A DNA stretch of 64,000 bases from Brevundimonas sp. (GTDB lineage Bacteria; Pseudomonadota; Alphaproteobacteria; Caulobacterales; Caulobacteraceae), in assembly GCF_029946145.1 (NCBI RefSeq), contig NZ_JAQSDY010000012.1, positions 178,806 to 242,805 of the forward strand. The letters run 5' to 3'. Position 1 is the first letter of the stretch. Each line of letters opens with the position of its first letter. Made by a program: the position numbers and the translations under genes. Under the pieces are notes generated by a model that was not told where the DNA came from, searched no databases, and was given only the letters and a program-made list of their open reading frames with translations. This document shows, piece after piece, positions 5,989-64,000 of the stretch.

Positions 5989-6065
5989 TCGTCGTCCGAC
6001 AGGGCGACGTCCCCGCGTCCGCACCCTCGGGGATGATCTGCTCGCCGGAGTGCTCCGCGAGCTGG

Positions 6066-12769: not shown

Positions 12770-12992
12770 GGAAGGTCAGAACTCCGACGTCTGCGCCCCC
12801 ATCCGCAGGATGCTCCCGCGGAGTGAATCAAACGCTACCGACCAAGGGGGCGCACGACGTGACAGCGGCATCTGAACGACCCTGCGTTCGGCGGGTTCCT
12901 GTTGGTCCAATGTCATGGGCATGGGGGCGTTGCCCGGCGCGTGGCGGTGCGGGCAGTCCAGCGCGGCCGTGACAGGCGCCCTGTCAATGAAT

Positions 12993-34744: not shown

Positions 34745-35611
34745 ATGCGGCCGTTTGGTATCGTGGGCTTGCAGCTTCAGCTGGCCAAGGGCGACAACAC
34801 CGCGCGGATCGCCGCCGAGGTCGCGGCCGTGAAGGCGCGCATGCCATGGGTGGAGATGGTCGTGCTGGGCGAACTGGCGCTGTTTGGCGCCTCGACGGCT
34901 GACGCCCAGCCGATGCCCGGCGACGCCGAAGCGAAGATGTGCGAGGCGGCCCGGGCGGCGGGGGTCTGGCTGATACCCGGCACCCTGTTCGAACGGGACG
35001 GCGAGCGCATCTACAACACCGCCCCGATCATCGATCCAAATGGTCGCGTGGTGGATCGCTACCGCAAGATTTTTCCGTTCCACCCCTATGAGCAGGGCGT
35101 CTCCAGCGGCGATCGCTTCGTGGTGTTCGATGTCCCCGGCGTCGGGCGGTTCGGTCTGTCGATCTGCTACGATATGTGGTTCCCGGAAACCATCCGGACC
35201 CTGGCCTGGATGGGGGCCGAGGTGATCCTTCATCCGGGCATGACCAACACCGTCGACCGCGAGGCGGAGCTCGCCATCTCCCGCGCCAGCGCGGCGACCA
35301 ACCAGGTGTATTTCGTCGATATCAATGTCGCCGGACCGCTGGGCGTGGGACGGTCTGGCGTGTTCGGCCCCGGCGGCGAGGTGATCCACCAGGCCGCCTC
35401 CGGCCACGAGGTGATCGCCATTGAACTCGACCTGGACCAGGTGACCCGGGTTCGCGAGCGCGGCTGGCACGGTCTCGGACAGCCGCTGAAGAGTCTGCGG
35501 GACACGCCGATCGTGTTCCCGCCCTACGCAAAGGGTTTCCCGGCCTCGCCGGCGTTCGCCGGACTGGGGCCGTTGGAAAAGCCGCAGGTTGAACGGACGA
35601 AGAAACCGTAA
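34745..35611 (+). CDS. Carbon-nitrogen hydrolase (nitrilase superfamily amidase)
   Basis: Catalytic triad contexts VLGEL (Glu), YRKIFPF (Lys) and ICYDMWFPE (Cys); IYNTA. Confidence 0.92.
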   Translation: MRPFGIVGLQLQLAKGDNTARIAAEVAAVKARMPWVEMVVLGELALFGASTADAQPMPGDAEAKMCEAARAAGVWLIPGTLFERDGERIYNTAPIIDPNGRVVDRYRKIFPFHPYEQGVSSGDRFVVFDVPGVGRFGLSICYDMWFPETIRTLAWMGAEVILHPGMTNTVDREAELAISRASAATNQVYFVDINVAGPLGVGRSGVFGPGGEVIHQAASGHEVIAIELDLDQVTRVRERGWHGLGQPLKSLRDTPIVFPPYAKGFPASPAFAGLGPLEKPQVERTKKP

Positions 35612-35705
35612 CCCAGGGGCAGGATCCAGGACGCGGCCCTGGCGCGCCGAATGCGCCAGACAGAAAAAGCACAGCAGAGTCTGTGTTCAAGGAGGGGGTT
35701 TCAGG

Positions 35706-38054: not shown

Positions 38055-38055
38055 G

Positions 38056-39444: not shown

Positions 39445-41615
39445 TGCGCAGTATCTGGCCGGGGGGCGTCGTCCTGACGACGGCCCTGACCCTCGCGACC
39501 TCCGCCCTGTCGGCGCCGATCTTCGTCGACGATTTCCAGGACGGCCAGGCGGACGGATGGGGCGCGGCCGGCGTCGGCGATGTGCGCCTGTCGACCTGGC
39601 AGGGCAATGTGGCGCTCCGGCTGACCGGCGGGGCCACCGCCACGACGTCCGTCTCGACTGCCGGATACGGGCAGGTGACGATCGCCGCCTCGCTGGCGGC
39701 CCTGTCGCTGAGCCGGAACGATGCCTGCGTCGCGGAAGTCTCCACGGATCTGGGCGCGACCTGGCGTGAGGTCGTCTCGGTCCGCGCCGGCGCCGACGAC
39801 GGCGTCACCCTGCACAGAGGAGAAACCGCGCCGACAGGCGCCGACGACAATCCTCGCCTGATGCTGCGTTTCAGGGCCGCCGGCGGCCGCGACGCCACCT
39901 GCTGGGGCGACGGCGTCACGGTCACCGGCCAGCCTCTCGTGGCTGCGACCGCCGCCTCGGCGGCGAGAACCGACCTGACCTTCGATACCCTGATGCCGGG
40001 GTCCGGTTTCGCCGCCCCCGTCGACCTGTCCGCCTTCGCCCCGCCGCCCGCCGCCGGGGCGCCGTCCGGGCGGCTCGAGGGACGGCTGATCCTGGACGTT
40101 TCCGGCGTCTCGCTGAACCTCACGGTGCTGAAGGACGACACCGCCGACACGGCCGCCGCCCGCGCCGCGCGGGCCACCCTGCCGGCCTTTGATTTCGCCT
40201 TCGTCCAGGAGGGGGCCGCCCTGATCCCGCTGCAGCGCGGACCCGTGGCCGCGACGCATTCCGAATGGGAGTGGGTGCTGGAACCCGGCCGGGTCTGGCG
40301 CGAGGAGGGCGACCACGGCTGGCTGCGGGCCGCCGTGCCGTTCGCCCTGGCGGAGCGCAACGCCAACTGTCTGCACAACGGGGTGCTGACCTTCCTGCTT
40401 CAGCCCGACGGCGCGGTGTCGCGGGTCGCCCTGGAAGTCGCCTCCGAGACCTGCGCCTATCTGAAGTTCGACGCCTGGGGCATGGCCCCCGCGCGCTTCG
40501 TCCCGGGGCCCGTGGCGGGGAGCGAGGCGGCGGCGACCGCCTGGCGCGAGGAGGTTGCGGCGCGTCTGCCGGTGCGGCCCGTCGCGGACCTCGCCGGCCT
40601 GTATCCGGGCGTCGACCTCGGGCGGCTTGATCTGATGACCCCGGCCGACGGCGATCCGGCTTCGGCCTGGGGTCTGGTCGTGGACGGCGTCCACTATGCC
40701 GGCCCCTGCCGGACCCGCCACGGGGACTATCCGTTCTGCGAGGTTCTGGCCCTGCCGTCCTATTCCACCGCCAAGTCGATCGTCGGCGGCGTCGGGCTGA
40801 TGCGGCTGGAAGCGATGTATCCGGGAACCGCCGCCGACCTCATCCGCGATCACGTGCCGGCCTGCGCGCGCGGCGAGGCCTGGGCCGGGGTGACGCTGGG
40901 CCATGCGGCCGACATGGCCACGGGAATCTACGGATCGACCGTCTTCGAGGCGGACGAGAACGCGCCTTCCATCCAGGCCTTCTTCGAGGCCCCCGATCAC
41001 GCCGCCAAGGTCGCCTACGCCTGCGGCGAATACCGGCGGCGAACCGGGCCGGGGCGCACCTTCGTCTATCACACGACCGACACCTATCTGCTGGGCGTCG
41101 CCATGGCCGATATCCTCGAGGACCGGACAGGGGGCGATCTCTACGACGATCTGGTCGCGCCGCTGTGGCGGTCGCTGAGCCTCAGCCCGACCATCCTGGA
41201 GACGCGCCGGACCGCCGACGCGGTGCGCCAGCCGTTCACCGGCTGGGGCCTGATCTATCACAGCGACGATATCGTCCGCGTCGCGGGGTGGCTCGACGAC
41301 GGGGCGCCGGTGGACGGACGTCCGGCGCTGGACGCGGCCATGCTCAAGGCGGCCCTGCAGCGCGATCCGGCCCCGGCCGGCCTTCCCGGCGGCGGCCCCG
41401 ACTACCGCTACAAGACCGGCTTCTGGGCCCGCAATCTGGCCGGGCCGCTCGGCTGCGACCAGCCGCTCTGGACGCCCTTCATGTCCGGATATGGCGGCAT
41501 CTCGGTGGTCATGCTGCCGGGTGAAATGACCTTCTACTATTTCGGCGACAGCGGGATCTTCGACTGGTCCCCGGCCGCGGTCGAAGCCGCGAAGATCAGG
41601 GGACTGTGCCGATGA
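39444..41615 (+). CDS. Secreted multidomain serine hydrolase (beta-lactamase/AmpC fold at the C-terminus)
   Basis: Signal peptide; YSTAKS (SxxK), FVYHT (YxN-equivalent), MSGYGG; about 430 aa of N-terminal beta-rich and middle domains. Confidence 0.75.
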   Translation: MRSIWPGGVVLTTALTLATSALSAPIFVDDFQDGQADGWGAAGVGDVRLSTWQGNVALRLTGGATATTSVSTAGYGQVTIAASLAALSLSRNDACVAEVSTDLGATWREVVSVRAGADDGVTLHRGETAPTGADDNPRLMLRFRAAGGRDATCWGDGVTVTGQPLVAATAASAARTDLTFDTLMPGSGFAAPVDLSAFAPPPAAGAPSGRLEGRLILDVSGVSLNLTVLKDDTADTAAARAARATLPAFDFAFVQEGAALIPLQRGPVAATHSEWEWVLEPGRVWREEGDHGWLRAAVPFALAERNANCLHNGVLTFLLQPDGAVSRVALEVASETCAYLKFDAWGMAPARFVPGPVAGSEAAATAWREEVAARLPVRPVADLAGLYPGVDLGRLDLMTPADGDPASAWGLVVDGVHYAGPCRTRHGDYPFCEVLALPSYSTAKSIVGGVGLMRLEAMYPGTAADLIRDHVPACARGEAWAGVTLGHAADMATGIYGSTVFEADENAPSIQAFFEAPDHAAKVAYACGEYRRRTGPGRTFVYHTTDTYLLGVAMADILEDRTGGDLYDDLVAPLWRSLSLSPTILETRRTADAVRQPFTGWGLIYHSDDIVRVAGWLDDGAPVDGRPALDAAMLKAALQRDPAPAGLPGGGPDYRYKTGFWARNLAGPLGCDQPLWTPFMSGYGGISVVMLPGEMTFYYFGDSGIFDWSPAAVEAAKIRGLCR

Positions 41616-44156: not shown

Positions 44157-45655
44157 GCCATCCGCATGATCCGGCCGAGCGCGCGCGTCTGGCCCTCAAA
44201 CGCCCCGACCTGCTGCGCGAGGCGGCCTGGATCAACGGCGCCTGGGTGACCGGCGAGACGCTGATCGAGGTGACCAACCCGGCCACCGGCAAGGTGCTGG
44301 GCGTCGTCCCGGCGCTCGGCGAGGCGGAGACGCAGGACGCGGTGGCCGCCGCCGCCGCGGCCTTCCCGGCCTGGGCCGCGCGCTCGGCCCGGGAGCGGTC
44401 GCTGATCCTGCGCCGCTGGTACGAGCTGGTCATGGCCCACCGCGACGACCTCGCCCGGCTGATGACGGCCGAACAGGGCAAGCCGCTGGCCGAGGCCCAG
44501 GGCGAGGTGGCCTACGCCGCCGGCTTCATCGAGTGGTTCGGGGAAGAGGCACGTCGGGCCTATGGCGAGGTGATCCCCGGCCATCTGGCCGACAAGCGGA
44601 TCGTGGTGCTCAAACAGCCGGTGGGGGTCGTCGCCGCGGTGACGCCGTGGAATTTCCCCGCCGCGATGATCACGCGCAAGGTCGCCCCGGCCCTGGCCGC
44701 CGGCTGCACCGTGGTGCTCAAGCCGTCGGAGCTTACGCCCTTTTCGGCCCTGGCCCTGGCGGTGCTGGGCGAGGAGGCGGGGCTGCCGGCCGGGGTGTTC
44801 AACATCGTCACCGGTCCGCCGGCGCCGATCGGAGCCGTGCTGACCACCGATGCGCGGGTCGCCAAATTCACCTTCACCGGCTCGACCCCGGTGGGCAAGA
44901 TGCTGGCCGCCGCCTGCATGGGCACGGTCAAGCGGGTGTCGCTGGAGCTGGGCGGCAATGCGCCCTTCATCGTCTTCGACGACGCCGATCTCGACGCGGC
45001 CGTGGAGGGGGCGATCGCCTCGAAATTCCGCAACACCGGCCAGACCTGCGTCTGCGCCAACCGGCTGCTGGTCCAGTCGGGCATCCATGACGCCTTCGCC
45101 GCCCGGCTGGTGGCGCGGGTCGAGGCCCTGCGGGTCGGCGACGGGCTGGACGGTCCGACCGATCAGGGGCCGCTGATCAACGCCGCCGCCGTGGCCAAGG
45201 TGGAGGCGCACATCGCCGACGCCCTGGCCGGCGGGGCGGCCGTCATGACCGGCGGCGCGCGGCGCGGCGATCAGGGGACCTGGTTCGAGCCGACGGTGCT
45301 GTGCGATGTGGCGCCGGCGGCCTTGCTGAACCGGGAAGAGACCTTCGGGCCGGTCGCGGGCCTGGTGCGGTTCGAGACCGAGGCCGAGGTCCTGGCCATG
45401 GCCAATGACACCCGTGCAGGTCTGGCCTCCTACGTCTTCACCCGTGACCTCGACCGGGCCTGGCGGATGGGCGAGGGACTGCAGTACGGCATGGTCGGCC
45501 TGAACACCGGCCTGATCTCCACCGAGGTGGCCCCGTTCGGCGGGATCAAGGAATCGGGCCTCGGCCGCGAGGGTTCGCACTTCGGTCTGGATGAATATCT
45601 GGAGCTGAAGATGATGTGCCTGGGCCTGAGGCCGACCCAGCTTCAGGACTCATAG
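44153..45655 (+). CDS. gabD: NAD(P)-dependent succinate-semialdehyde dehydrogenase
   Basis: PWNFPAAMITRK, FTGST, ELGGNAP, SKFRNTGQTCVC, EETFGP, KESGLGREGS. Confidence 0.93.
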   Translation: MSHPHDPAERARLALKRPDLLREAAWINGAWVTGETLIEVTNPATGKVLGVVPALGEAETQDAVAAAAAAFPAWAARSARERSLILRRWYELVMAHRDDLARLMTAEQGKPLAEAQGEVAYAAGFIEWFGEEARRAYGEVIPGHLADKRIVVLKQPVGVVAAVTPWNFPAAMITRKVAPALAAGCTVVLKPSELTPFSALALAVLGEEAGLPAGVFNIVTGPPAPIGAVLTTDARVAKFTFTGSTPVGKMLAAACMGTVKRVSLELGGNAPFIVFDDADLDAAVEGAIASKFRNTGQTCVCANRLLVQSGIHDAFAARLVARVEALRVGDGLDGPTDQGPLINAAAVAKVEAHIADALAGGAAVMTGGARRGDQGTWFEPTVLCDVAPAALLNREETFGPVAGLVRFETEAEVLAMANDTRAGLASYVFTRDLDRAWRMGEGLQYGMVGLNTGLISTEVAPFGGIKESGLGREGSHFGLDEYLELKMMCLGLRPTQLQDS

Positions 45656-45870
45656 GATCTGAGCCACAGCCGGGGTGGTGCGAGCAGGACGGCGGCGCGG
45701 CAATGTGCGGGTAATCCCTGAATACGGGACCCGGCAGCTACCCGGGAAGTGCGTGGCGGTGCTGTCAGGCAAACGCTAAAAGGTCTCCGCTGAGTGGCTT
45801 GGAATAGTCGCTGAAGGCAGGGGACAAGCGGAGGATGCGGCGGGGCAGCGCTATTGAACCGCAGCCTTCT

Positions 45871-47307
45871 CTAACCGCCGGGTGACAGAAGAACCCCGGG
45901 ATTCATGCGCCAGGACGGGTCAATGGCCGACTTGATCCGCCCGAACAGATCCAGCTCGACGGCGTCGACGACGCGATGGAACTCGTCACGCTTGTAGGTC
46001 CCGACCCCGTGTTCCGCGCTGATCGAACCACCCAAGGCAAGCGCGATGTCGTGCACGCGCGCCATGACCTCCGGAGCGTGTTTGAGGAAGGACGGCGGTT
46101 CATCGCCGGATGGCTGGATCACCGTGAAGTGGATGTTGCCATCTCCGATATGGCCGAACGACAGCGGCCGGCAGCCAGGCACGATTGTCCGCGCTACAGT
46201 GGAAGCTCGATCTATGAACTCGGGGACCGCCCCCAGCGGTACGGAAACGTCATGCTTGATGGACGCGCCCGCGCGCCGCTGCCCGTCGACGACGCCTTCG
46301 CGCAGGCGCCAGAGCTGGCTGCGTTGGCCTTCATTTTCGGCGAGCACAGCGTCGAGCGCGGCGCCCTTCGAAAGGGCCTGACCGATACCGGTCTCGAAGG
46401 CCGCCCGGAGGGAGCCCTGGTCCGCAGCTGTCGCGGCTTCGATCAGTACGTACCAAGGGAAGTCGCCCGGCAAAGGGTCCTGGGCGTCGAGAATGGCGGA
46501 AAGCGCGAGCTCCATTCCGATCCCCTCGATGAGTTCGCACGCCACGACGGCGTCGCCACAGGCCCCACGGACCTCGTTCAGAAGCGTCATGGCGGACGCC
46601 GGATCCGGCGTCGCGACAAGCGCGGTTTCGATCTGGCGCCAGGCGGGCGTCAGGCGCATCACCGCCGCCGTCACCACGCCAAGACCGCCCTCGGCGCCGA
46701 TGAAGAGCTGCTTCAGATCGTAGCCCATGTTGTGCTTGCGCAGGGCGCGCAGCCCGTTCCAGATCGAACCGTCCGGAAGGACTACCTCGAGGCCCATCAC
46801 ATTTTCGCGGCAGTTGCCGTAACGAAGGGCCCGGATGCCGCCGGCGTTGGTCGAGATGACCCCGCCGAGGGTGCAGCTTCCTTCCGCGCCCAAGCCCAGC
46901 GGAATGGCGAACCCCGCCTCGCGCGCCGCGGCCTGCAGGTCGGCGAGGACGCACCCCGCCTCGGCCGTGATCGAGGGCGTGAAGGCGTCCATAGAACGGA
47001 CGGCGGTCATGCGATCCAGGGAGAGCAGCAGGCATCTCTGCCGGCTTCTGGGGACCGACGCGCCGGTCAGCCCCGTATTGCCGCCCTGCGGAGTCACCGC
47101 GAGATCGTGCTCACAGGCCACCCGCAACAGCGAGGAGACTTCAGCCGTGGATGCGGGGCGGGCCACAGCGATCGCATCGCCCGTTTCCTTGCCCGTCCAG
47201 TCGGACAGGTAGGGAGCCATGGCGTCGGCGGCGTCCAGAAGGGCACCGGGGCTCACGCAGGCCGCGAGGGCTGCGAGCGAATCCGTGGTTGAATATTTCA
47301 TCGTCAC
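45871..47307 (-). CDS. FAD-linked oxidase (D-2-hydroxyglutarate dehydrogenase/GlcD-like)
   Basis: PQGGNTGL, TNAGG, GYDLKQLFIGAEG, HDVSVP, GHIGDGNIH, SAEHGVG. GTG 47307 overlaps the SDR stop; ATG 47301 is an alternative start. Confidence 0.9.
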   Translation of the reverse strand: MTMKYSTTDSLAALAACVSPGALLDAADAMAPYLSDWTGKETGDAIAVARPASTAEVSSLLRVACEHDLAVTPQGGNTGLTGASVPRSRQRCLLLSLDRMTAVRSMDAFTPSITAEAGCVLADLQAAAREAGFAIPLGLGAEGSCTLGGVISTNAGGIRALRYGNCRENVMGLEVVLPDGSIWNGLRALRKHNMGYDLKQLFIGAEGGLGVVTAAVMRLTPAWRQIETALVATPDPASAMTLLNEVRGACGDAVVACELIEGIGMELALSAILDAQDPLPGDFPWYVLIEAATAADQGSLRAAFETGIGQALSKGAALDAVLAENEGQRSQLWRLREGVVDGQRRAGASIKHDVSVPLGAVPEFIDRASTVARTIVPGCRPLSFGHIGDGNIHFTVIQPSGDEPPSFLKHAPEVMARVHDIALALGGSISAEHGVGTYKRDEFHRVVDAVELDLFGRIKSAIDPSWRMNPGVLLSPGG

Positions 47308-54324: not shown

Positions 54325-54353
54325 GTCATACCAATGGAAAGACGTCTGTTCAA
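54325..54353 (-). promoter_or_regulatory. Sigma70 promoter TTGAAC-N17-TATGAC overlapped by operator AGACGTCTG (54336-54351)
   Basis: Direct reading of the minus strand upstream of the monooxygenase-ligXa-gtdA operon. Confidence 0.75.
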
Positions 54354-54507
54354 TTGCCCTTTCAAAAAAATGCGGCCGCCCGGAATCCGCCCCATGAAGG
54401 GTTCTCATTTTATGGTGCTAGAATCCTCGCGTTATCAGCAATTTTGTGTGCCGGAGCTGCATATGAGCCTCCGCCGAAAATCGGACTAGCCCTCGAAGTT
54501 CGCGGAA

Positions 54508-54523
54508 TGTAATACGTCTGATT
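54508..54523. promoter_or_regulatory. Operator copy TGTAATACGTCTGATT upstream of the RraA/LigK-like gene
   Basis: The right 10 nt are identical to the perfect palindrome at 63611-63626. Confidence 0.6.
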
Positions 54524-54589
54524 AGTCGCTGAATCTGACGTGAAGTCGAAAGTCGCATCGTTCGTCGCGTATCAACGGGAAACCCAGCC

Positions 54590-55264
54590 ATGTCCCCATC
54601 GGCAGAAACCATCACCGAAGCGCGCCGGCTCGGAACCGCGACGTTGCACGAGGCCGCGGGGCGCATTGGCGCGCTCCCCTCCGTGATCAAGCCGGTTGAT
54701 CCGGCCATGACACTGGCGGGACCTGCCTTCACCGTGCACTGCCCGGCGCTGTCCAACCTGCAGATCCACCACGCGCTCTACCACGCGCAACCGGGAGACA
54801 TCCTGGTGGTCCATGTCAGCGGAGGCGTGGAAGCGGGCTATTGGGGCGACATCCTGAACGAGGCGGCTCTGGCGCGGGGCTTGGGCGGCCTGGTGATCGA
54901 CGGCGGCGTTCGAGACAGCGCGGGCCTGACGAAGATGGCCTTCCCGGTCTTTTCCAATGGCATCTGCATCCGCGGCACGGGCAAGGACTATGACGCCACG
55001 GCATGGCTGCAACAGCCGGTGCGGATGGGTGAGGTGCTGATCCAGCCCGGCGACCTGATCGTCGGCGACCGGGACGGCGTCTTCGCCCTGTCCATGGCGC
55101 GGGCTGAGGAGGTGGTCGAAGCCGGACAGCGACGTGAAGCGGACGAGACCGCCAAGATCGCGGCCATTCGGCGAGGAGAGCGGACCCTGGATCTTTATGG
55201 TTTTGCGAAGGGAGCGCCGACGGAGATCGCCGCGGGCCTGCCGTTCACGGGGCGCACACGCTGA
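54590..55264 (+). CDS. RraA-family HMG/CHA aldolase (LigK/GalC-like), paralogue 1
   Basis: GTATLHEA, LAGPAFTV, GYWGDIL, IDGGVRD, GDLIVGDRDGV. Confidence 0.9.
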   Translation: MSPSAETITEARRLGTATLHEAAGRIGALPSVIKPVDPAMTLAGPAFTVHCPALSNLQIHHALYHAQPGDILVVHVSGGVEAGYWGDILNEAALARGLGGLVIDGGVRDSAGLTKMAFPVFSNGICIRGTGKDYDATAWLQQPVRMGEVLIQPGDLIVGDRDGVFALSMARAEEVVEAGQRREADETAKIAAIRRGERTLDLYGFAKGAPTEIAAGLPFTGRTR

Positions 55265-55276
55265 TCGGGGTCGGCG

Positions 55277-55777
55277 TCAGTCGTCGTCGAGGACGATGGG
55301 CGCGCGGGTCACGCCGTTGAAGCGGTCCACGAACTTCCCCAGCAGGCGCAGGAACTCCGCTCCTTCTTCCGGCGTGAAGGCCGACAGCGCGCGCTCCTGA
55401 GCGGTCCGCGCGGCGTGACGCAGGTTCTCCAGCTTCCTCTCGCCCTTGCCGGTCAGGACGATGACCTTGCGGCGACGGTCGGCGCGGTCCTCGACTCTCA
55501 CGATCAGGCCTTCGCTTTCGAGGCGCTTGACCACGAGGCCGGTGGTCGACCGGTCCAGCCCGACCTTCTTCGACAGGCCGATCTGGTCCAGGTCCTCGCA
55601 GCACCGGAGGATCACCAGGACGCCGTACTGGGTCGTCGTGACGTTGAACTCGGCGCTCTCTTCCATGAACAGCGAGACGCTGATCTGGTGCGCCCGGCGC
55701 AGCAGGAAGCCGGGGCGTTTGTAGAGTGCGTCGACGCTGTTGATGTCGGATGCGCTTGTCGCGGAACGTGCAGGCAA
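55277..55777 (-). CDS. MarR-family regulator (start uncertain; TTG 55777 chosen)
   Basis: PGFLLRRAHQ, TTTQYGVL, GLDRST...RLESEGLIVR...DRR. Confidence 0.88.
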   Translation of the reverse strand: MPARSATSASDINSVDALYKRPGFLLRRAHQISVSLFMEESAEFNVTTTQYGVLVILRCCEDLDQIGLSKKVGLDRSTTGLVVKRLESEGLIVRVEDRADRRRKVIVLTGKGERKLENLRHAARTAQERALSAFTPEEGAEFLRLLGKFVDRFNGVTRAPIVLDDD

Positions 55778-55889
55778 GTCGGAGCCCCGGTTTCTCGAAC
55801 TCGCGCCAGATAGACGCTTCGATTCAAGGCGATCAGTACACTGCGTCTGTGACACTGTCGAATGCGGCGAGGCGGCGCGGGGACGGCCT

Positions 55890-57281
55890 TCAGGGTTCGA
55901 CATGGACGATCTCCGTCGGCCCCAGGGCTCTCTGGCGGGCCCCTCTGAACAGATTGACAAGGGAGAAGCCGGCCGAGGTCAGGGCGAGACCCGCCGCGGC
56001 GAAGGCGGGCGTCGGCCCGGCTCCGAACGCGGTGGCGAGGAGGGCCGAAGCCATCGCCGCGCCCAGCGCCTGTCCGACGAAACGCGTGGCCGAGACGAGC
56101 GCGCCTGCGGACGCCGCCCGATCGCGGGGAGCCGCGCCGATGATCAGGTGGGCGGTGGGGGCCATGAACAGGCCGAAGCCGACGCCGCCCAGCGCCATCG
56201 GGATCGCCAGAACGGCGACGCCGCTGTCAGGAGAAAGGATGCCGGCGGTCGCCAGTCCGGTCGCCGCCAGGATCATCCCGATCGCGCCGGGCAGGCCCCT
56301 GGGCGCGCGATCGGCCAACAGACCCGCGACAGGTGCGGCGATCATCATCGCCAAGGGCCAGACCGCCAGCACGAGCCCGATCTCGGCCGGCTGAAGGCCT
56401 GCGGTCTGCAGGCGGAAGGGCAGGGCCACCATGAAGGCCACCGAGGCCGAGAAGGCGAACAGCGCCGCCGCGGCGGGCAGGGCGAAGGTCGCGCGCGCCA
56501 GAAGATCCACCGGCAGTATGGGACGCGCCGATCGCATCTCGCGCCGCACGAAAATGATGGCGACGGGAATTCCCACGGCGACCAGGGCCGCGCCGATCGG
56601 GCCGTCGCCGTGCAGCAGCAGGCTGAGACCGCTCATCAGCAGGCCGAACATCAAGGCGCAGAGGAGGGCGCCGGCTGCATCGAACCGGTCGCTGTGCGCC
56701 TTGGGGTCGGGAAGAACCTGGCCCAGGGCCAGCGAGAGCAGGGCGAAGGGGGTGGCGGCCGCGAACACCCAGCGCCACGACCCCGCGCCGAGAATCAGCC
56801 CGCCGAGGCTGGGGGCCGCCGCGGCCGCCACGGCGATGACCAGGCTGTTGAACGCCATACCTCGCCCGAGCCTGGCCGAGGGATAGGTCGCACGCAGGAG
56901 CGCGGAGCTGACGCTCAGGGCCGCCGCGACGCCCAGCGCCTGAAGGCAACGCGTGGCCAGAAGCATGGGCAGATTGGTCGCCAGCGCGCTGCCCAGGCTG
57001 GCGATCAGGAAGACCAGCTGTCCCGACTGATACATGCGCCGATGCCCGACCCGATCCCCCAGGGCGGAGAAGGGCAGCAGCGCCATCAGCATGGCGACCT
57101 GGTAGACCGTGACGACCACCACGGCGCTGGCGGAGGAGATGCTCAGCGCGCGCGCGATCGTGGGCAGGGCGACCGTGGCGATCGCGTTGTCGACGACCAG
57201 CATACCGGTGCCCAGCGACAAGGCCAGGACGGCGACGTGCCGTCGCGGCGCCGTCAGGCCCACATGCGTCTCAGCCGTCAC
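55890..57281 (-). CDS. MFS transporter (DHA2/EmrB-QacA-like)
   Basis: DNAIATVALPTI, motif A LGDRVGHRR, RCLQALG, PSLGG, WRWVF; about 14 TMs. Confidence 0.88.
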   Translation of the reverse strand: MTAETHVGLTAPRRHVAVLALSLGTGMLVVDNAIATVALPTIARALSISSASAVVVVTVYQVAMLMALLPFSALGDRVGHRRMYQSGQLVFLIASLGSALATNLPMLLATRCLQALGVAAALSVSSALLRATYPSARLGRGMAFNSLVIAVAAAAAPSLGGLILGAGSWRWVFAAATPFALLSLALGQVLPDPKAHSDRFDAAGALLCALMFGLLMSGLSLLLHGDGPIGAALVAVGIPVAIIFVRREMRSARPILPVDLLARATFALPAAAALFAFSASVAFMVALPFRLQTAGLQPAEIGLVLAVWPLAMMIAAPVAGLLADRAPRGLPGAIGMILAATGLATAGILSPDSGVAVLAIPMALGGVGFGLFMAPTAHLIIGAAPRDRAASAGALVSATRFVGQALGAAMASALLATAFGAGPTPAFAAAGLALTSAGFSLVNLFRGARQRALGPTEIVHVEP

Positions 57282-59011
57282 TCGGATATGATGTTCAGCA
57301 GAACCTGTCGCCGATCCTCGCGGACCATGCGGATGGCGCGTCGGATCGCGTCGGGAACGGCGGCCGGATCCTCGATGCGTTCGCCGTAGCCGCCGGACGC
57401 TTCGACGTACTTCTCGAAGTCGGGGATGGGGCGCAGATCGCTGAGCGGAGCCGGTTTGGGTCCGCGCGCCGCATGGCCTTCGGGGAAGACGCCGATGGTC
57501 GAGGATTGCACCGCGCCCCAGCGGGCGTTGTTGCAGATGATCGTCAGCAGGGGCGTCTCATGCATCGCGATGGCCTGGTGGCAGGCCGCGGGATTGCAGA
57601 ACAGATATGCGCCGTCGCCCATGGTGCAGACGACCGGCCGGTCGGGGGCGGCGAGGGCGGCGCCGATGGCGGCGGGCATGCCCCAGCCAAGGCCTGCCGC
57701 CGGAGAGTGCATGTAGAAGCTGCCGGCCGTTTTCGCGTCGAATATCTCGCGGTCGACCCAGTACTCGTTCACGACGATCGCGTCGGCGGGAAGCGCCTCG
57801 TTGAGGCAGAGGTTCAGCCAGTCCTTGTTCATTCGCGGGGTGTCGGCCAGCGGGGCGAGACGTTTGCGCCGACGCTCCCGCCGACCTTCGGCAAGCGTGG
57901 CGATCTTCGCCGCCCGGTCAGAGAGGCGTTTTTCCTCCACGATCTCGGCTAGGGCCTCGGTCAGCGGTCCCAACAACTGGCCGGCGGAGCTCGTGACCCA
58001 CAGCTCGCCGCGGAAGGACCGCAGCGGATAGTCGAGGAACAGCGGATCGACGCCCACATGGACGATCCGGGTCTCCGCCCGGGGCTCCCGCGTTTCCGGC
58101 AGCCAGGGCACCTCAGTCTCCAGACAGATCAGCAGATCGGCCTCGCCGAGATACGGATGCACCGACTGGCCGAGGTGATAGGGATGATCGGACGAGGCGC
58201 AGACATACCGGGACTTGGCCTCCACGATGCCGATGCCGAATCGTTCGCAGAGCTCGCCTAGCGGCGCGACGGTTTCCGGGTCGCGACCCGAGGCAGACGT
58301 CACCAGCAGTGGGCATTTGGCGGCGTCGATCATCTCCGCTAGCTTCCGGATTGCTTCGGGATCCGGAGCGGCGCGGCTGGTCGGAGCCAGCGGCTTGGCC
58401 TCGACGGTGTGGGGTTCGGACTGCGCCGACAGCACCTCGCGCGGGAGGGTCAGATAGACCGGTCCGGCGGGCGCGGCCTGGGCGGTCATCAGTCCGCGAT
58501 CAAGGACGTCCTCGAGGTTCAGGCCTGAACGCAGTTCGTAGTCCCACTTGACCAGTTCGCGCAGCATACCGGCCTGGTCGTACATTTCCTGCGCCCAGTG
58601 GATCGCGCCGCTGCGGGCGCCCAAGGGACCCTTCTCGTAGAGAGGCGTGCGGCCGGCCATGAACAGCATGGGTATTTCGTCGCGCTTGGCGTTCATCACG
58701 CCGCAGACGGCGTTGGCGGCCCCCACGCTGACGTGAACCATGACCGCCTGCGTCCGACCCGTGATCATGGTGTAGCCATGGGCCATGCCGACGACGAGAT
58801 TCTCGTGCGTGCCAATGATCGGCGCCGGGAAGTCGAGGTGGGAGAGCGACTGGCGAGCGTAGGCCTCAGCGATCGGGGCCGCGTCCGTGCCACTGTTGAT
58901 GAAGAGGTAGTCGACGCCCTTCTGTTTCAGCAGCGCCAGGAAGGTTTCCGCGACGGCTTCGGATTGCGGCAGAACTTGCGTGTCGCGCCGTTCCTTGGAC
59001 TGTACGGGCAT
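57278..59011 (-). CDS. Thiamine-diphosphate-dependent enzyme (decarboxylase/lyase superfamily)
   Basis: THENL (catalytic Glu), GDGAY...NN ThDP/Mg motif, GLGWG. ATG 59011 has a GGAGG SD. Confidence 0.9.
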   Translation of the reverse strand: MPVQSKERRDTQVLPQSEAVAETFLALLKQKGVDYLFINSGTDAAPIAEAYARQSLSHLDFPAPIIGTHENLVVGMAHGYTMITGRTQAVMVHVSVGAANAVCGVMNAKRDEIPMLFMAGRTPLYEKGPLGARSGAIHWAQEMYDQAGMLRELVKWDYELRSGLNLEDVLDRGLMTAQAAPAGPVYLTLPREVLSAQSEPHTVEAKPLAPTSRAAPDPEAIRKLAEMIDAAKCPLLVTSASGRDPETVAPLGELCERFGIGIVEAKSRYVCASSDHPYHLGQSVHPYLGEADLLICLETEVPWLPETREPRAETRIVHVGVDPLFLDYPLRSFRGELWVTSSAGQLLGPLTEALAEIVEEKRLSDRAAKIATLAEGRRERRRKRLAPLADTPRMNKDWLNLCLNEALPADAIVVNEYWVDREIFDAKTAGSFYMHSPAAGLGWGMPAAIGAALAAPDRPVVCTMGDGAYLFCNPAACHQAIAMHETPLLTIICNNARWGAVQSSTIGVFPEGHAARGPKPAPLSDLRPIPDFEKYVEASGGYGERIEDPAAVPDAIRRAIRMVREDRRQVLLNIISE

Positions 59012-59046
59012 GTTGGCCTCCCGGGCTGTATCGAGTTTCGCCCTAT

Positions 59047-59073
59047 ATGATAAGACGTCTGCCTGGTTGCCAA
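59047..59073 (-). promoter_or_regulatory. Operator GATAAGACGTCTGCCT (59049-59064) between TTGGCA and TATCAT boxes of the ThDP-MFS operon
   Basis: AGACGTCTG core; the promoter spacer is short (15 nt), so the promoter call is weaker than the operator call. Confidence 0.6.
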
Positions 59074-59114
59074 GGAAAAACTGCCGCCGCACCCGATTGT
59101 GAAGCGAGAAAGCC

Positions 59115-59155
59115 TTGCAAGCTCCGGTTCAGGCTGGATATACAGACGTCTGCGC
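59115..59155 (+). promoter_or_regulatory. Promoter TTGCAA-N18-TATACA overlapped by operator CAGACGTCTG (59143-59152)
   Basis: Perfect 10-bp palindrome about 55 nt before the ligY-like ATG. Confidence 0.7.
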
Positions 59156-59207
59156 AATCACGTCGTGATGGGTGCTAAGCTTACGAAGAGCGGGTGCGGA
59201 GACAACA

Positions 59208-60212
59208 ATGATCATCGATTGCCATGGCCACGTCAGCGCTCCCGCGGAACTGTGGGCCTACAAGGCGTCGGTGCTGTCGCATCGGGGCTCCCATGGTCGA
59301 GGCGGCGTCCGCGTCTCCGACGATGACATCCGTCGCGCCGTCAACAAGGTCGAAATGGCGCCCTGCGGCCACCTCGACATGCTGGAGCGCCATGGCACCG
59401 ACCTGCAGCTGATTTCCCCGCGTCCCTTCCAGATGATGTCCAGCTTCGAGCCGGGCCGGGTGGTCCACTGGTTCGTGGAAGAGTGCAACACGATCATCCA
59501 TCGCCAGACGCAGCTGTTCCCGGACAAGTTCGTCGGCGTCTGCGGGCTGCCCCAGGTGGCGGGCGAGCCGATAGAGAATACCTTCGCGGAACTGGATCGC
59601 TGCATCGGCCTGGGCTTCAAAGGCTGCCTGCTGAACCCCGACCCATATGAAAATACGCGGACTGACCAGCCGGGCCTCGGCGATCGCTACTGGTATCCGC
59701 TCTACGAGAAGCTCTGCGAACTGGATATTCCAGCGCACATACACGCGACGGGGTCGCGGTCAGACCGGACGCCCTACAGCCTGCACTTCATCAATGAGGA
59801 GACGATCGCCGTCTTCAACCTCGTGAACTCCAGCGTGCTGGACGACTTCCCCTCGCTGAAGATCGTGGTCAGCCACGGCGGCGGCGCCATACCCTATCAG
59901 CTGGGCCGGTTCGAGGCAGGTTCGATCCATCCGGGATCAAAGCGCCGGTTCTCAGAGGGGATGCGCAAGCTCTACTACGACACAGTGCTCTACACCGAGG
60001 GCGCGCTGCGGTTGCTGATCGAGACGGTCGGCGTGGACCGGTGTCTGTTCGGGTCGGAATGCCCGGGCGTAGGCTCCAAGGTCGTGGACGGTCACGACCA
60101 CACCATGGACCACATCGCACCGACCATCGCGAAGTTCGATTTCCTGAGCGACGCCGACAAGAAGAAGATCTTCGAGGACAACGCCCGCGCCGTCTTCCGG
60201 CTGGACCAGTAG
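59208..60212 (+). CDS. ligY: Amidohydrolase-superfamily meta-cleavage compound hydrolase, LigY-like
   Basis: MIIDCHGHVSAP..LWAYKAS..HRGSHGRGG, ISPRPFQMM, LPQVAGEPIEN, PYSLHFINEETIA, SHGGGAIPYQLGRFE, LFGSECPGVG match my recollection of SYK-6 LigY throughout. Confidence 0.85.
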   Translation: MIIDCHGHVSAPAELWAYKASVLSHRGSHGRGGVRVSDDDIRRAVNKVEMAPCGHLDMLERHGTDLQLISPRPFQMMSSFEPGRVVHWFVEECNTIIHRQTQLFPDKFVGVCGLPQVAGEPIENTFAELDRCIGLGFKGCLLNPDPYENTRTDQPGLGDRYWYPLYEKLCELDIPAHIHATGSRSDRTPYSLHFINEETIAVFNLVNSSVLDDFPSLKIVVSHGGGAIPYQLGRFEAGSIHPGSKRRFSEGMRKLYYDTVLYTEGALRLLIETVGVDRCLFGSECPGVGSKVVDGHDHTMDHIAPTIAKFDFLSDADKKKIFEDNARAVFRLDQ

Positions 60213-60221
60213 GGGGCCCTG

Positions 60222-61250
60222 ATGGCCGAGATCGTTCTGGGCGCCTGGACCACACACGGGCCAACTCTTTCGACGACGCCCGAAGAGTGGCTGCTGCGCC
60301 TGCCCGCCGACAAGGCGCGCAAGGACCACCCGTTCCGGGGGGCAACCTATGACTTTCCCGCCCTCGTCGAACTGCGCAAAGACGAGGACCTGGCCGCCCA
60401 GGCGACCCTGGAAGAGCGCACCCGGCGGTCGCTCCTCTGTCGCGCCGCCATCGATCGGCTGGCGGACATCTATGAGAAAGCTCGCGTCGATGTGGCGGTC
60501 ATCTTCGGCAACGATCAGCACGAAATCTTTCTGGATGACCTCATCCCGGCCCTGACCGTCTTCAACGGCGAGACCATCTGGAACGCCCCGGCGACCGAGG
60601 CGCAGGCCGCCATATCGCCACCGGGCATCCACGTATCGGAGTGGGGGCATAAGCCGCCTCAGTACACCGAATATCCCGGCCACCCCGAGCTGGCCAATCG
60701 CATCATCCGGCAGGCCATCGCAGACGGATTCGACGTGGCCAAGTCGTCGAAGCTGCCCGAGAATCCGGGTAATTGGCATAGCGGTATCGGGCACGCCTTC
60801 GGCTTCATCTATCGCCAGATCATGCGCGACAAGCCGGTCGCCAACGTTCCGTTGTTCGCCAACACCTTCTTCCCGCCCAACCAGCCGACGGCGCGGCGGT
60901 GTTTCGCTTTCGGCCAGGCGGTCGGCCGGGCGATCCGCGCCTGGGACTCCGATGCTCGCGTCGCGGTTTTCGGGTCGGGCGGCATGACGCATTTCGTCAT
61001 CGACGAGGCCTTCGACGCCAAGATCATCGACGCGATCCAGGCTCGCGATGCCGAAACACTCTGCTCCATCGGCGAGGAATACTTCCAGGCGGGAACCTCC
61101 GAGCTGAAGAACTGGATCGCGGCTGCGGGCTGTCTCTTCGAGACCGACCTGAGCGGCGATCTGGTCGATTATGTGCCCTGCTATCGCTCGGAGGCGGGGA
61201 CCGGCACGGCCAACGGCTGGATTGCGTGGAACAAGAAGGCGGGAGCATGA
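60222..61250 (+). CDS. ligZ: Class III (LigB-fold) extradiol dioxygenase, LigZ-like
   Basis: MAEIVLG..THGP, GNDQ, HAFGFIYRQIMRD, PPNQPT.RRC, SGGMTHFVIDE, FQAGTSELKNWI, YVPCYRSEAGTG match my recollection of SYK-6 LigZ; no LigA-type subunit nearby. Confidence 0.85.
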   Translation: MAEIVLGAWTTHGPTLSTTPEEWLLRLPADKARKDHPFRGATYDFPALVELRKDEDLAAQATLEERTRRSLLCRAAIDRLADIYEKARVDVAVIFGNDQHEIFLDDLIPALTVFNGETIWNAPATEAQAAISPPGIHVSEWGHKPPQYTEYPGHPELANRIIRQAIADGFDVAKSSKLPENPGNWHSGIGHAFGFIYRQIMRDKPVANVPLFANTFFPPNQPTARRCFAFGQAVGRAIRAWDSDARVAVFGSGGMTHFVIDEAFDAKIIDAIQARDAETLCSIGEEYFQAGTSELKNWIAAAGCLFETDLSGDLVDYVPCYRSEAGTGTANGWIAWNKKAGA

Positions 61251-61909
61251 GCGACGAAATCCTTATCCGCCTGGCGCGCCTTGACGCCTGCGCCGTTTCC
61301 GACGCTCTCGATCAGGTCGGGGCGCCGCCATCGGTGACGGGACTGAAGGCCCTGTCCGCGCGGCAGCGCATTTCCGGTCGGGTCACGACCGTCCGTCTGG
61401 CCGCCGGCAAACCGCTTGAGGGTGCGCCGTCCAGACACTTGTGCACGACGGCGATCGACAGCTCGGACGCCGGCGCTGTGATCGTGGTCGAACAGCGCAC
61501 GGGCGTCGAATGCGCCGGCTGGGGCGGCATCCTGTCGAACGCGGCGCGCGGCCGGGGTATTTCAGGCGTCATCGTCGAGGGTCTGGCCCGCGACATCGAC
61601 GAGGCGGCCGACATCGGCTTCCCGGTCTATGCGCGCGGCGGTACGGCACGCACAGCACGCGGCCGCATCCATGAGGCGGAGACCGGCGGGACGATCCAGG
61701 TCGGCGATACCACGGTCTCGAACGGCGACTATGTCGTCGCCGATTCCAGCGGCGCGGCCTTCGTGCCGGCCGACCGGATCGAGGCGGTGCTGGCGGCGGC
61801 CGAGCGGATCGCGGTCAAGGAAGCGGCGATGACCAAGGCGGTCATGTCCGGTCAGCCGGTCAGCGACGTGATGGGCGCCAGCTACGAACACCTTCTGGAA
61901 CAGGGCTGA
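61247..61909 (+). CDS. RraA-family protein (HMG aldolase-like), paralogue 2
   Basis: DACAVSDALD, AGWGGILS, EGLARD, GDYVVADSSG. ATG 61247 overlaps the ligZ stop. Confidence 0.88.
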   Translation: MSDEILIRLARLDACAVSDALDQVGAPPSVTGLKALSARQRISGRVTTVRLAAGKPLEGAPSRHLCTTAIDSSDAGAVIVVEQRTGVECAGWGGILSNAARGRGISGVIVEGLARDIDEAADIGFPVYARGGTARTARGRIHEAETGGTIQVGDTTVSNGDYVVADSSGAAFVPADRIEAVLAAAERIAVKEAAMTKAVMSGQPVSDVMGASYEHLLEQG

Positions 61910-61910
61910 T

Positions 61911-62564
61911 ATGACCGACGCCAACGTAGAACGGGTCGGCCGCATCGACACAGCGACCCTCAGCGACGCGCTCGACAAGCTGGGGATCCCCGGCCAGTGC
62001 CTGGGCGTGAAGCCGCTGGACCACGGGTTCCGGCTCGCGGGTCGCGCCTTCACCGTCACCTACGCCCCGGCGGCGCCGGGTGGGACGGTCGGCGACTTCA
62101 TCGACGACGTGCCGGACGGTCATGTGGTCATGATCGACAACGGCGGACGGCCCGATGCGACTGTCTGGGGGGACATCATGACCCTGTGCGCGCATCAGCG
62201 AAAACTGGGCGGGACGGTGATCGACGGCGCGTGCCGCGATACTCATCTGGCGCTCGATCTCGGCTATCCGATGTACAGCCGCAGCTATTCGATGCGGACC
62301 GGCAAGGACCGGGTCCAGCTGGAAGCGGTCGGTCAGGTCGTCAACATCGGCGATGCGCGCGTCAGTCCCGGCGACCTGGTGCGGGGCGATTCCGACGGGG
62401 TCGTGGTCATCCCGCGCGCCCGGGAGGCCGAGGTGCTCGACATCGCCGAGGCGATCGAGGTGGCGGAGGGCCGTATTCGCGAGCTGATCTCGTCCGGCAT
62501 GCGGCTGGATGACGCCCGCAAGCAGCAGGGCTATCACCTGCTCCAGCGCCGCGAGAAGCCCTGA
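61911..62564 (+). CDS. RraA-family protein (HMG aldolase-like), paralogue 3
   Basis: DTATLSDALD, LAGRAFTV, TVWGDIM, IDGACRD, GDLVRGDSDGV. Confidence 0.9.
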   Translation: MTDANVERVGRIDTATLSDALDKLGIPGQCLGVKPLDHGFRLAGRAFTVTYAPAAPGGTVGDFIDDVPDGHVVMIDNGGRPDATVWGDIMTLCAHQRKLGGTVIDGACRDTHLALDLGYPMYSRSYSMRTGKDRVQLEAVGQVVNIGDARVSPGDLVRGDSDGVVVIPRAREAEVLDIAEAIEVAEGRIRELISSGMRLDDARKQQGYHLLQRREKP

Positions 62565-62566
62565 CC

Positions 62567-63601
62567 ATGGCCTGGCGGGTCGTCGCAACAGCGAGCCTGG
62601 GCCCACACGAGGGCGTGATCGCGCGCCTGGTTGAGGCGGGCTGCGAGATCGACCGGCTGCCGGCCGCCGCCACGACGTGGACTCCCGAACTGATCGCCCG
62701 CTACGCCTCCACCGCCGACGCCTATGTCGGAACCTTCCGGGGGATCGGACTGCCCCGCGAGGTGATCGAGGCCTCGCCCCGGGCCCGCGTGATCACCTCG
62801 CCGATCATCGGCACCGAATATATCGACGTCAAAGCGGCGACCGAGGCGGGCGTTCTGGTCGCACACGGGGCCATGTCAGAGAATTTCGACGGCATGGCCG
62901 AGGCCGGCGTCATGCTGATCGCCGCGACCCGCAAGGCGCTGGCCGGCAAGACCGCCGCCGTAAGGGCGGGAGAATGGAAGACCGCTCCGGCGGGCCGCCT
63001 GGTGCTGGAATCCACCATCGGCATCCTGGGCCTGGGCCGGATCGGGCAGGGGGTCGCGCGCCGGCTGAACGGCTGGGACTGCGAGATCATCGCCTGCGAC
63101 CCCTATGTCGATCCCGCGGCGGCGGCGAAGCTGGATGTGGAGCTGGTCGGCATCGACGACCTGTTCCGCCGGTCGGATGTCGTGGTCATCCTTGTGACCC
63201 TGACGCCGGAGACACGGCACATCGTCAACGCCGACAGGATCGCCGCGATGAAGCGCGGAAGCGCCATCGTCAACATCGGCCGGGGCGGGTGCATGGACGA
63301 GGCAGCGGTTATCGCCGCGCTCGACTCCGGCCAGCTCGCGGCGGTCGCCATCGACGCCTGGGAGTCCGAACCGCCGGCGCCCGACAATGCGCTGCGCAGC
63401 CATCCGGCGGTCATCGCCACCTCGCACGACGTCGGCCATTCCACGGACCTGTACGCCCGTATTCCGGTCGTGGCCGCCGAGAACACCCTGGCCGCGCTCG
63501 AGGGGCGGCGGCCCGACTACCTGCATAACCCGGCGGCGTTGCCGGCCTGGCGCGAACGCTGGAACGACGCGCCCCAACCCGCCGCAGCCGGAGCCTTATG
63601 A
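62567..63601 (+). CDS. D-isomer-specific 2-hydroxyacid dehydrogenase family
   Basis: GILGLGRIG, DPY, VNIGRG (Arg), DAWESEP (Glu), TSHDVG (His). Confidence 0.88.
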   Translation: MAWRVVATASLGPHEGVIARLVEAGCEIDRLPAAATTWTPELIARYASTADAYVGTFRGIGLPREVIEASPRARVITSPIIGTEYIDVKAATEAGVLVAHGAMSENFDGMAEAGVMLIAATRKALAGKTAAVRAGEWKTAPAGRLVLESTIGILGLGRIGQGVARRLNGWDCEIIACDPYVDPAAAAKLDVELVGIDDLFRRSDVVVILVTLTPETRHIVNADRIAAMKRGSAIVNIGRGGCMDEAAVIAALDSGQLAAVAIDAWESEPPAPDNALRSHPAVIATSHDVGHSTDLYARIPVVAAENTLAALEGRRPDYLHNPAALPAWRERWNDAPQPAAAGAL

Positions 63602-63607
63602 CGTCCC

Positions 63608-63626
63608 TATAATCAGACGTCTGATT
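63608..63626. promoter_or_regulatory. Perfect 16-bp palindromic operator AATCAGACGTCTGATT (63611-63626) overlapping TATAAT (63608-63613)
   Basis: Direct reading; upstream of the final aldehyde dehydrogenase gene. Confidence 0.8.
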
Positions 63627-63689: not shown

Positions 63690-64000
63690 GTGACCGACGC
63701 CTTCACCTATCCGGCCCCCAAGCTCTTCATCGCGGGCGTGTGGCGCATGGCCGGCGACGGCGCGACCCAGCCGGTCCTGAACCCCGCGACCGGGGAGACC
63801 ATCGGCGACCTGCCCGTCGCCGGTGAGGCCGACCTGGACGAGGCGCTGGCCGCCGCCGACGCGGGCTTCAAGGTGTGGCGCAAGACCTCGGCCTACGACC
63901 GCGCCCGCATACTGCATGACGCCGCGCGGCTGATGCGCGAACGCAGCCGCTACATCGGTTCGGTCAGCACGACCGAACAGGGCAAGCCGCTGGCGGAATC
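63690..64000 (+). CDS. NAD-dependent aldehyde dehydrogenase (SSADH/KGSADH-like), N-terminal part, truncated by the window edge
   Basis: GTG 63690 after an AAGGA SD: KLFIAGVW...VLNPATGETIG...ADLDEALAAA..GF..W...SAYDRARIL...TTEQGKPLAE. Confidence 0.9.
   Translation, partial: MTDAFTYPAPKLFIAGVWRMAGDGATQPVLNPATGETIGDLPVAGEADLDEALAAADAGFKVWRKTSAYDRARILHDAARLMRERSRYIGSVSTTEQGKPLAE

Follow-up and report, generated by a model that had tools for sequence, protein, structure and literature searches.

Palindromic sites at an aromatic catabolism gene cluster

The stretch of DNA analyzed here, referred to as the window, comprises 64,000 nucleotides of a Brevundimonas sp. contig (NZ_JAQSDY010000012.1) and carries a cluster of genes resembling those for the catabolism of lignin-derived biphenyls and gentisate-type aromatics. 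Between 44 and 64 kb, marR (55277-55780, minus strand) is the only regulator gene, and five palindromic sites, S1 to S5, lie around it. Our computational analysis suggests that these sites are conserved operators, most probably of the resident MarR protein acting as a repressor, a reading that we consider likely.

S1 (54336-54351, GGAAAGACGTCTGTTC, core AAGACGTCTG) is located upstream of Unit 1, a minus-strand operon of seven genes extending from 54294 to 47304. In order, these encode a PhzS-like FAD monooxygenase, a LigXa-like Rieske oxygenase, a bicupin gentisate-type dioxygenase, a fumarylacetoacetate hydrolase (FAH)-family hydrolase, a glutathione S-transferase (GST)/isomerase, a ferredoxin reductase and a short-chain dehydrogenase/reductase (SDR), as assigned from Pfam, open reading frames (ORFs), the PDB and NCBIfam PRK07538. 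S2 (54508-54523, TGTAATACGTCTGATT) is a variant, AATACGTCTG, with two core mismatches, and precedes Unit 2, a single plus-strand RraA-like gene (54590-55264; LigK/HMG-CHA aldolase-like by Pfam), whose product scores 176.8 against a cut-off of 179 in NCBIfam PRK09262. S3 (59049-59064, GATAAGACGTCTGCCT, core AAGACGTCTG) lies upstream of the minus-strand Unit 3 (59011 to 55890; Pfam, NCBIfam PRK08327 and synteny), which consists of genes for a thiamine diphosphate (ThDP)-dependent enzyme (57278-59011) and a major facilitator superfamily (MFS) transporter (55890-57281); marR follows the latter on the same strand after a 110-bp spacer.

On the other side of the spacer from Unit 3, S4 (59140-59155, ATACAGACGTCTGCGC, core CAGACGTCTG) precedes Unit 4, a plus-strand operon of five genes (59208-63601; Pfam, ORFs and PDB). 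It encodes an amidohydrolase (59208-60212), a LigZ-like LigB-family dioxygenase (60222-61250), two RraA-like proteins (61253-61909 and 61911-62564) and a D-2-hydroxyacid dehydrogenase (HADH, 62567-63601). The amidohydrolase matches LigY of Sphingobium sp. SYK-6 (PDB 5VN5/6E6I) over residues 1-333 with 73.4% identity (568 bits, E = 4.5e-170), and this close full-length similarity identifies it as a LigY orthologue, in agreement with the ligYZ call of the initial annotation. S5 (63611-63626, AATCAGACGTCTGATT), a perfect 16-mer palindrome, lies upstream of the plus-strand aldehyde dehydrogenase (ALDH) gene that forms Unit 5 (63690-64000; Pfam). This gene is cut by the end of the window; its orthologue in locus L002 is full length, with 480 residues.

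The number and placement of the sites are not random. The window contains exactly four copies of the 8-mer AGACGTCT, at 54340, 59053, 59144 and 63615, against 0.52 expected, and none of 100 dinucleotide-preserving shuffles reached four; the fifth site, S2 at 54508, reads ATACGTCT in its place. Our own ORF set covers about 85% of the window, but none of the five sites falls within coding sequence; the chance of this for five of five sites is at most about 0.15^5. The gene map places one site in front of each transcription unit, all in promoter-bearing gaps, as the initial annotation had described for five palindromes that we found at exactly its coordinates. The sequences flanking the palindromes differ from site to site. 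Across the whole window, the other matches to CAGACGTCTG with up to two mismatches are coding, lie in a GC-rich context or lack the ACGT center. A minus-strand response-regulator gene (12356-12775) begins 9 bp from a candidate at 12784-12793 (CCGACGTCTG), which was rejected as a chance match because of its GC-rich flanks and imperfect left half.

Pooling 50 distinct sites yielded the symmetric consensus aAT-N3-CAGACGTCTG-N3-ATt. In MarR-DNA complexes, the recognition helices occupy two major grooves and the wings contact A/T-rich flanks, and the consensus fits this binding geometry.

Promoter geometry and conservation in close relatives

The sites coincide with promoter-like hexamers, which were found where the initial annotation had placed them. 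S1 fills the 17-nt spacer adjoining the -35 element of a minus-strand promoter, TTGAAC (54353-54348)/TATGAC (54330-54325), and S3 is located between a -35 TTGGCA (59073-59068) and a -10 TATCAT/TCATAT (59052-59045), also on the minus strand. S4 begins at the last base of a -10 TATACA (59139-59144), which lies 18 nt after a -35 TTGCAA (59115). At S5, a TATAAT (63608-63613) comes directly before the palindrome, and the deviant left half of S2 forms a -10-like TGTAAT (54508). Judging from this geometry, a protein bound at any of the five positions would occlude RNA polymerase.

Orthologues of the window MarR are numerous, with identities of 60-99%. A genome scan with their alignment yielded 80 loci (denoted by L numbers), of which the closest, in a Brevundimonas metagenome-assembled genome (MAG), has a MarR 95% identical to that of the window. 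In four close relatives, the spacer between the FAD monooxygenase and RraA-like genes has a mean identity of only 61%. Within it, the block of about 30 bp around S1, CAATTGAACAGACGTCTTTCCATTGGTAT, is near-invariant in five genomes, and the S2 block, TCAGACGTAWTAC, is kept in all five close genomes with the same departure from the consensus. In the spacer between the LigY and ThDP genes, S3 (CAGACGTCT) is conserved together with its flanking -35 and -10 boxes, and S4 (CAGACGTCTGTATATCC) is invariant, in both cases in seven genomes; the set includes two whose MarR is 71-75% identical and whose spacer is 100 bp longer. S1 to S4 are thus invariant islands amid diverged intergenic DNA, that is, phylogenetic footprints. 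The excess of sites, their placement and their conservation point to a selected operator and bear out the repressor geometry of the initial annotation.

S5 has another history. With its TATAAT, it belongs to a segment of about 35 bp that has been inserted between the HADH and ALDH genes and that, apart from the window, only L002 contains. In L005 (2097-2215), L010 (676-770) and L017 (724-825), the segments corresponding to 63585-63626 of the window are without it, and the ALDH gene simply follows the dehydrogenase gene. S5 gives the impression of a promoter-operator cassette acquired recently within an older operon, which it divides.

Co-occurrence of the motif with a MarR clade

The exact 8-mer AGACGTCT was found in 25 of the 43 loci with a MarR at least 44% identical to that of the window (49 sites, 0.69 per 10 kb). 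In contrast, it was found in only 3 of the 37 loci in which MarR is more distant, in most cases a NicR/BpsR-like protein of betaproteobacteria (0.046 per 10 kb). The site density is thus 15-fold higher near this MarR clade, and the difference between the two groups of loci is significant (Fisher p = 1.9e-6; 1.7e-5 without the near-relatives of the window). For nearly every site, the gene 12-150 bp downstream is marR or a homologue of one of the window genes for FAD monooxygenase, LigY, ThDP, ALDH, HADH, gentisate-type dioxygenase or MFS, and MFS transporters and a periplasmic-binding-like gene are among the site-bearing genes of other loci. The motif and the clade span Caulobacterales, Sphingomonadales, Rhodospirillales and one Burkholderia.

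Several loci reduce the association to few genes. In L041, a 20-bp perfect palindrome, ATCGTCAGACGTCTGACGAT, immediately precedes the ribosome-binding site of marR, which is divergent from an MFS gene. In the Burkholderia locus (L039), the order is FAD monooxygenase, gentisate-type dioxygenase, FAH and GST genes, site, marR, and in L029 it is marR, site, FAD monooxygenase. A Polymorphobacter plasmid (NZ_CP081849, L001), the only locus returned by a search of plasmids, carries genes for the FAD monooxygenase (67% identity) and MarR (56%) divergent from a LigY-LigZ-RraA-RraA-aldolase-ALDH series, with a single site, TATAATATCAGACGTCTGACAAT, between them. Conversely, no site was found in LigZ-RraA-RraA-LigY loci of four distinct types (L082-L086), which are under a different MarR, an FCD/GntR or a LysR regulator. 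The motif therefore tracks the MarR clade and not the catabolic genes. The initial annotation had linked the gentisate, ligYZ, ThDP and ALDH units into one pathway; these units are repeatedly syntenic and are predicted to be co-regulated.

Some loci differ from these arrangements in ways of their own. On the Polymorphobacter plasmid, a TonB-dependent receptor gene is preceded at a distance of 88 bp by a site with one mismatch, gatcgaCAGACATCTGacaataat (L001:26153-26175), and by analogy to DdvT of SYK-6, this receptor may be part of the regulon in Polymorphobacter. A Rhizomicrobium MAG (L027; MarR 51%) has CAGATGTCTG, in which the central CG is replaced, at 6058, 7889 and 12869 beside GST, gentisate-type dioxygenase, FAH and FAD monooxygenase genes; with its outer half-sites retained, it appears to be an operator variant specific to this lineage. 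In three Sphingopyxis loci (L012-L014), marR (around 10001) stands alone beside XdhC/MobA-like and sigma-54 activator/PspA genes.

The MarR protein and its gene

The protein encoded at 55277-55780 belongs to the MarR family of transcription regulators, as judged from its winged helix-turn-helix domain (PF01047, 44.8 bits against a cut-off of 24.6; PF12802, 31.5 against 27). The profile of its clade matched 71 solved MarR-family structures, and in the orthologue alignment the winged helix-turn-helix and the wing are invariant. Two curated families, NF053777 (Saro_0803 family regulator; 71.4 bits against 200) and TIGR02337 (HpaR; 47.0 against 121.2), matched below their cut-offs, and the protein fell into no curated family. 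The best relatives of solved structure are PcaV and BpsR, which by sequence places the protein in a PcaV/NicR-like clade.

The gene likely starts at TTG 55780 and not at ATG 55903, since the ATG-initiated N-terminal extension contains an indel in L004 whose length is not a multiple of three. The gene-caller annotation of a MarR of 207-208 residues from the upstream ATG is thus probably wrong. The 110-bp spacer between the MFS gene and marR (55781-55889) has strongly conserved blocks in five genomes (TTCGACAG, GTGTACTGAT, CGAATCGA and TTTCGA...ATCGGGGC) and no operator; it may represent a constitutive marR promoter or leader. Two half-sites, ACAGACGC and GCGTCTAT, about 26 nt apart, are indeed present before marR at 55810-55850, as the initial annotation had reported, but they are not conserved in four close relatives and we rule them out as functional elements. 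As the ThDP-MFS unit behind S3 probably ends with marR, autoregulation would proceed via S3.

Comparison with characterized regulators

PcaV of Streptomyces coelicolor (PDB 4FHT/4G9Y), a protocatechuate-responsive repressor, is the best match of solved structure (54.6 bits; 77.9 bits with the clade profile) and shares with the window MarR the motif PG-LxRR in helix alpha-1, along with its ligand-contacting Arg. It differs in that the identity is low and in that it controls pca genes, as opposed to the LigY/gentisate-type genes of the window. The invariant Arg28 of the window MarR aligns with Arg26 of BpsR and with Arg15 of PcaV, which reportedly contacts the ligand carboxylate there. In BpsR, Arg26 binds the effector 6-hydroxynicotinate and contacts its carboxylate (PDB 6PCO/6PCP; PMC6837509). 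This alignment is an indirect pointer, and only that, to an aromatic-acid ligand that may relieve DNA binding by the window MarR.

BpsR and NicR are MarR-type repressors of nicotinate catabolism, and the recognition sequence of BpsR is stated to be unknown (PMC6837509). The layout of their loci is similar to that of the window, with the MarR gene beside a decarboxylating FAD monooxygenase (NicC-like) and then ring-cleavage genes, and many orthologues of the window MarR carry the JGI label 'lower aerobic nicotinate degradation pathway regulator', a KEGG-derived NicR label. In Bordetella-type loci, however, the MarR is only 41-42% identical and no AGACGTCT site is present. We rejected the assignment of the window MarR as a nicotinate regulator, since the window contains no nic genes and, of the BpsR residues Tyr15, His23, Arg26 and His32, only Arg26 is conserved.

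The DdvR system of SYK-6 parallels the window in gene content. DdvR, a MarR-type protein, represses ligXa and ddvT, is relieved by 5,5'-dehydrodivanillate (DDVA) (PMC6874591) and has been employed as a biosensor. Like the window, this system has a MarR gene amid LigXa-, LigZ- and LigY-type genes, two RraA-like ORFs, an MFS transporter and an ALDH. We compared the window with L082, a SYK-6-like locus (LigY 90% identical to the SYK-6 protein) that is not SYK-6 itself; the MarR beside its ligXa we presume, by position only, to be DdvR. The window MarR has only 23% identity to this protein over 103 residues (E = 4e-5), and we rejected it as a DdvR orthologue. A tblastn search with the window MarR had no match in L082-L086 (E up to 1e-5, at least 50% coverage), and neither L082 nor L083 contains a CAGACGTCTG site with up to one mismatch. 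The gene order also differs, being ligZ-rraA-rraA-ligY in the SYK-6-like locus and ligY-ligZ-rraA-rraA in the window. The analogy to SYK-6 drawn in the initial annotation thus holds for function and fails for orthology and operator. No operator sequence was found in the literature mentioning DdvR.

The MarR-type regulator MhbR of Paraburkholderia xenovorans LB400 resembles the window MarR in that its gene is divergent from genes of the gentisate pathway; its cluster has a predicted site, ATTGTTTCACAAACTAAT (PMC3572157). We compared this site as a possible instance of the same operator and discarded it, as it is unrelated to CAGACGTCTG. Our literature search returned no paper giving the CAGACGTCTG motif as a MarR operator, and searches on 5-carboxyvanillate with gentisate and on hydroxyisophthalate with gentisate yielded nothing relevant.

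Regulatory model and alternatives

From the position, conservation and phylogenetic distribution of the sites we infer the following model. A MarR dimer would bind the extended palindrome of about 22 bp, aAT-N3-CAGACGTCTG-N3-ATt. By occupying S1 and S3 within the spacers between -35 and -10, and S2, S4 and S5 on or just after the -10, it would block RNA polymerase. Release of the repressor would be brought about by an aromatic carboxylate of the pathway. Most likely this would be the compound on which the adjacent PhzS/NicC-like FAD monooxygenase acts, such as 5-carboxyvanillate or a 4-hydroxyisophthalate-type acid, or else the biphenyl substrate. The regulon would comprise the LigXa/LigZ/LigY-type module for the cleavage of DDVA-like biphenyls, the RraA-like aldolases, the ThDP enzyme with its MFS transporter, the ALDH and the gentisate-type ring-cleavage operon. 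Co-transcription of marR behind the ThDP and MFS genes would result in negative autoregulation through S3. The description as a complete regulon in the initial annotation goes too far: only one window was considered, S5 is lineage-specific, and in a relative a variant site precedes a TonB receptor gene.

A number of observations weigh against this model. Within 10 kb, 18 of the 43 clade loci have no exact site, although two of them (L007 and L009) are truncated contigs and one-base variants occur in L027 (three times), L018, L036 and L009. The three Sphingopyxis loci have neither a site nor a pathway gene within 10 kb, with a MarR that is 72-73% identical. As the 80 loci were picked via their MarR, the co-occurrence is one-directional. 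The reverse scan of metagenome contigs for the 14-mer ATCAGACGTCTGAT returned at least 120 stretches, of which, among the matches listed, one has a MarR relative (44%, 4.7 kb away) and none has pathway genes; thousands of chance matches to a 14-mer are expected there, so that this outcome does not tell against the model. Finally, a strict sigma-70 scan, which required at least 9 of 12 positions to match, called no promoter at S1 to S5, and the hexamers are partial matches to an E. coli-type consensus that may not be the host's, the promoter consensus of Caulobacteraceae being different from that of E. coli. The case therefore leans more on conservation than on the hexamers.

The Sphingopyxis orthologues are also a point in favor of an alternative in which the palindrome is bound by another transcription factor, encoded outside the window, and the resident MarR recognizes something else; so are the second MarR and the FCD/GntR, LysR and TetR regulators of the Polymorphobacter locus. 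We consider this unlikely, given that the site-bearing loci have no regulator in common other than MarR, that MarR stands alone beside the site in the minimal loci L041, L039 and L029, and that LigZ/LigY loci without this MarR clade have no site. Within the window itself, the sole other regulator is a MocR-type GntR at 32.4 kb. The resident MarR, which the initial annotation had put forward as the binder, is by far the best candidate on these grounds. Binding by MarR could also serve activation, or a dual role, at some of the sites, such as S2, S4 and S5. Some MarR-family proteins activate transcription, and the direction of regulation follows here from geometry, with weak promoter calls. The positions of S1 and S3 inside conserved spacers and of S4 on the -10/+1 region are nevertheless occluding ones, and the closest characterized relatives act as repressors, PcaV among them. 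For BpsR and NicR (PMC6837509) and for DdvR (PMC6874591), repression has been reported. An activating or dual MarR thus appears improbable to us.

That the sites could be chance occurrences or a non-regulatory repeat, either a restriction-type palindrome with GACGTC or a small mobile promoter cassette, is suggested by the insertion carrying S5 and TATAAT relative to L005, L010 and L017, by which at least one copy arose recently, and by the frequency of the 14-mer ATCAGACGTCTGAT by chance in metagenomes. We regard this as highly improbable, since the count of four sites far exceeds expectation, all are intergenic, S1 to S4 are invariant within diverged spacers, the density near the MarR clade is raised 15-fold, and the flanks are not common to the sites. 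Repression by the resident MarR remains the reading that best accommodates these data.

Implications for the catabolic pathway

In the DDVA-type route, LigXa, LigZ and LigY convert the biphenyl to a 5-carboxyvanillate-type acid and 4-carboxy-2-hydroxypentadienoate (PMC6874591). By analogy, the LigXa-like oxygenase, LigZ and LigY of the window would cleave a DDVA-type biphenyl, with removal of the 4-carboxy-2-hydroxypentadienoate falling to the RraA/LigK-like proteins. LigW, which decarboxylates the acid in SYK-6, has no counterpart encoded nearby, so the acid may instead undergo decarboxylating hydroxylation by the PhzS/NicC-like monooxygenase. We tentatively propose an as yet undescribed lower route, possible though rather doubtful, in which this enzyme would turn a 5-carboxyvanillate/4-hydroxyisophthalate-type acid into (methoxy)gentisate with loss of the carboxyl group, followed by the gentisate-type dioxygenase, the GST isomerase and the FAH hydrolase. 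The same acid would be the effector of MarR, and the core found across phyla would be the pair of MarR and decarboxylating hydroxylase, to whose operator the biphenyl module would have been recruited. The most distant loci keep the pair of MarR and FAD monooxygenase; this persistence, which mirrors NicR/NicC with 6-hydroxynicotinate, suggests the monooxygenase substrate as the effector.

The window has three RraA-like paralogues (54590-55264, 61253-61909 and 61911-62564). All locus types examined, the SYK-6-like one among them, have a tandem pair of such genes adjoining LigZ/LigY, and processing of 4-carboxy-2-hydroxypentadienoate by the RraA-like proteins is a possibility.

Other genes of the window

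After the MocR-type GntR/aminotransferase fusion (32425-34602) come a nitrilase-family (CN_hydrolase) gene and a TonB receptor gene; this group is unrelated to the operator sites. A 741-residue ORF (39390-41615) comes after a TonB receptor gene (35490-38054) and a TPR-sulfotransferase gene (37933-39444). Neither this ORF nor that at 45976-47292 (438 residues; stretch 45655-47304) had a match in Pfam. We found no contig carrying a protein identical to the HADH of the window, and a search of RNA-seq runs returned none containing this region.

Significance

A MarR repressor acting on a palindrome over a promoter is a textbook principle; the operator consensus is new. It defines a computed operator and a candidate regulon for an uncharacterized and widespread MarR clade of Caulobacterales, Sphingomonadales, Rhodospirillales and some Burkholderiales, with lignin-derived biphenyl and gentisate-type aromatic catabolism as the predicted function. 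The repressor/operator pair may find use in a biosensor or an inducible promoter, and the motif in separating regulon members from bystanders in metagenome bins. MFS genes carry the site, as does a TonB receptor gene in a relative, so the motif could also help to identify lignin-dimer transporters. Across lineages, the LigZ/LigY module occurs under at least four unrelated regulators, namely this MarR clade, the MarR in the position of DdvR, FCD/GntR and LysR.

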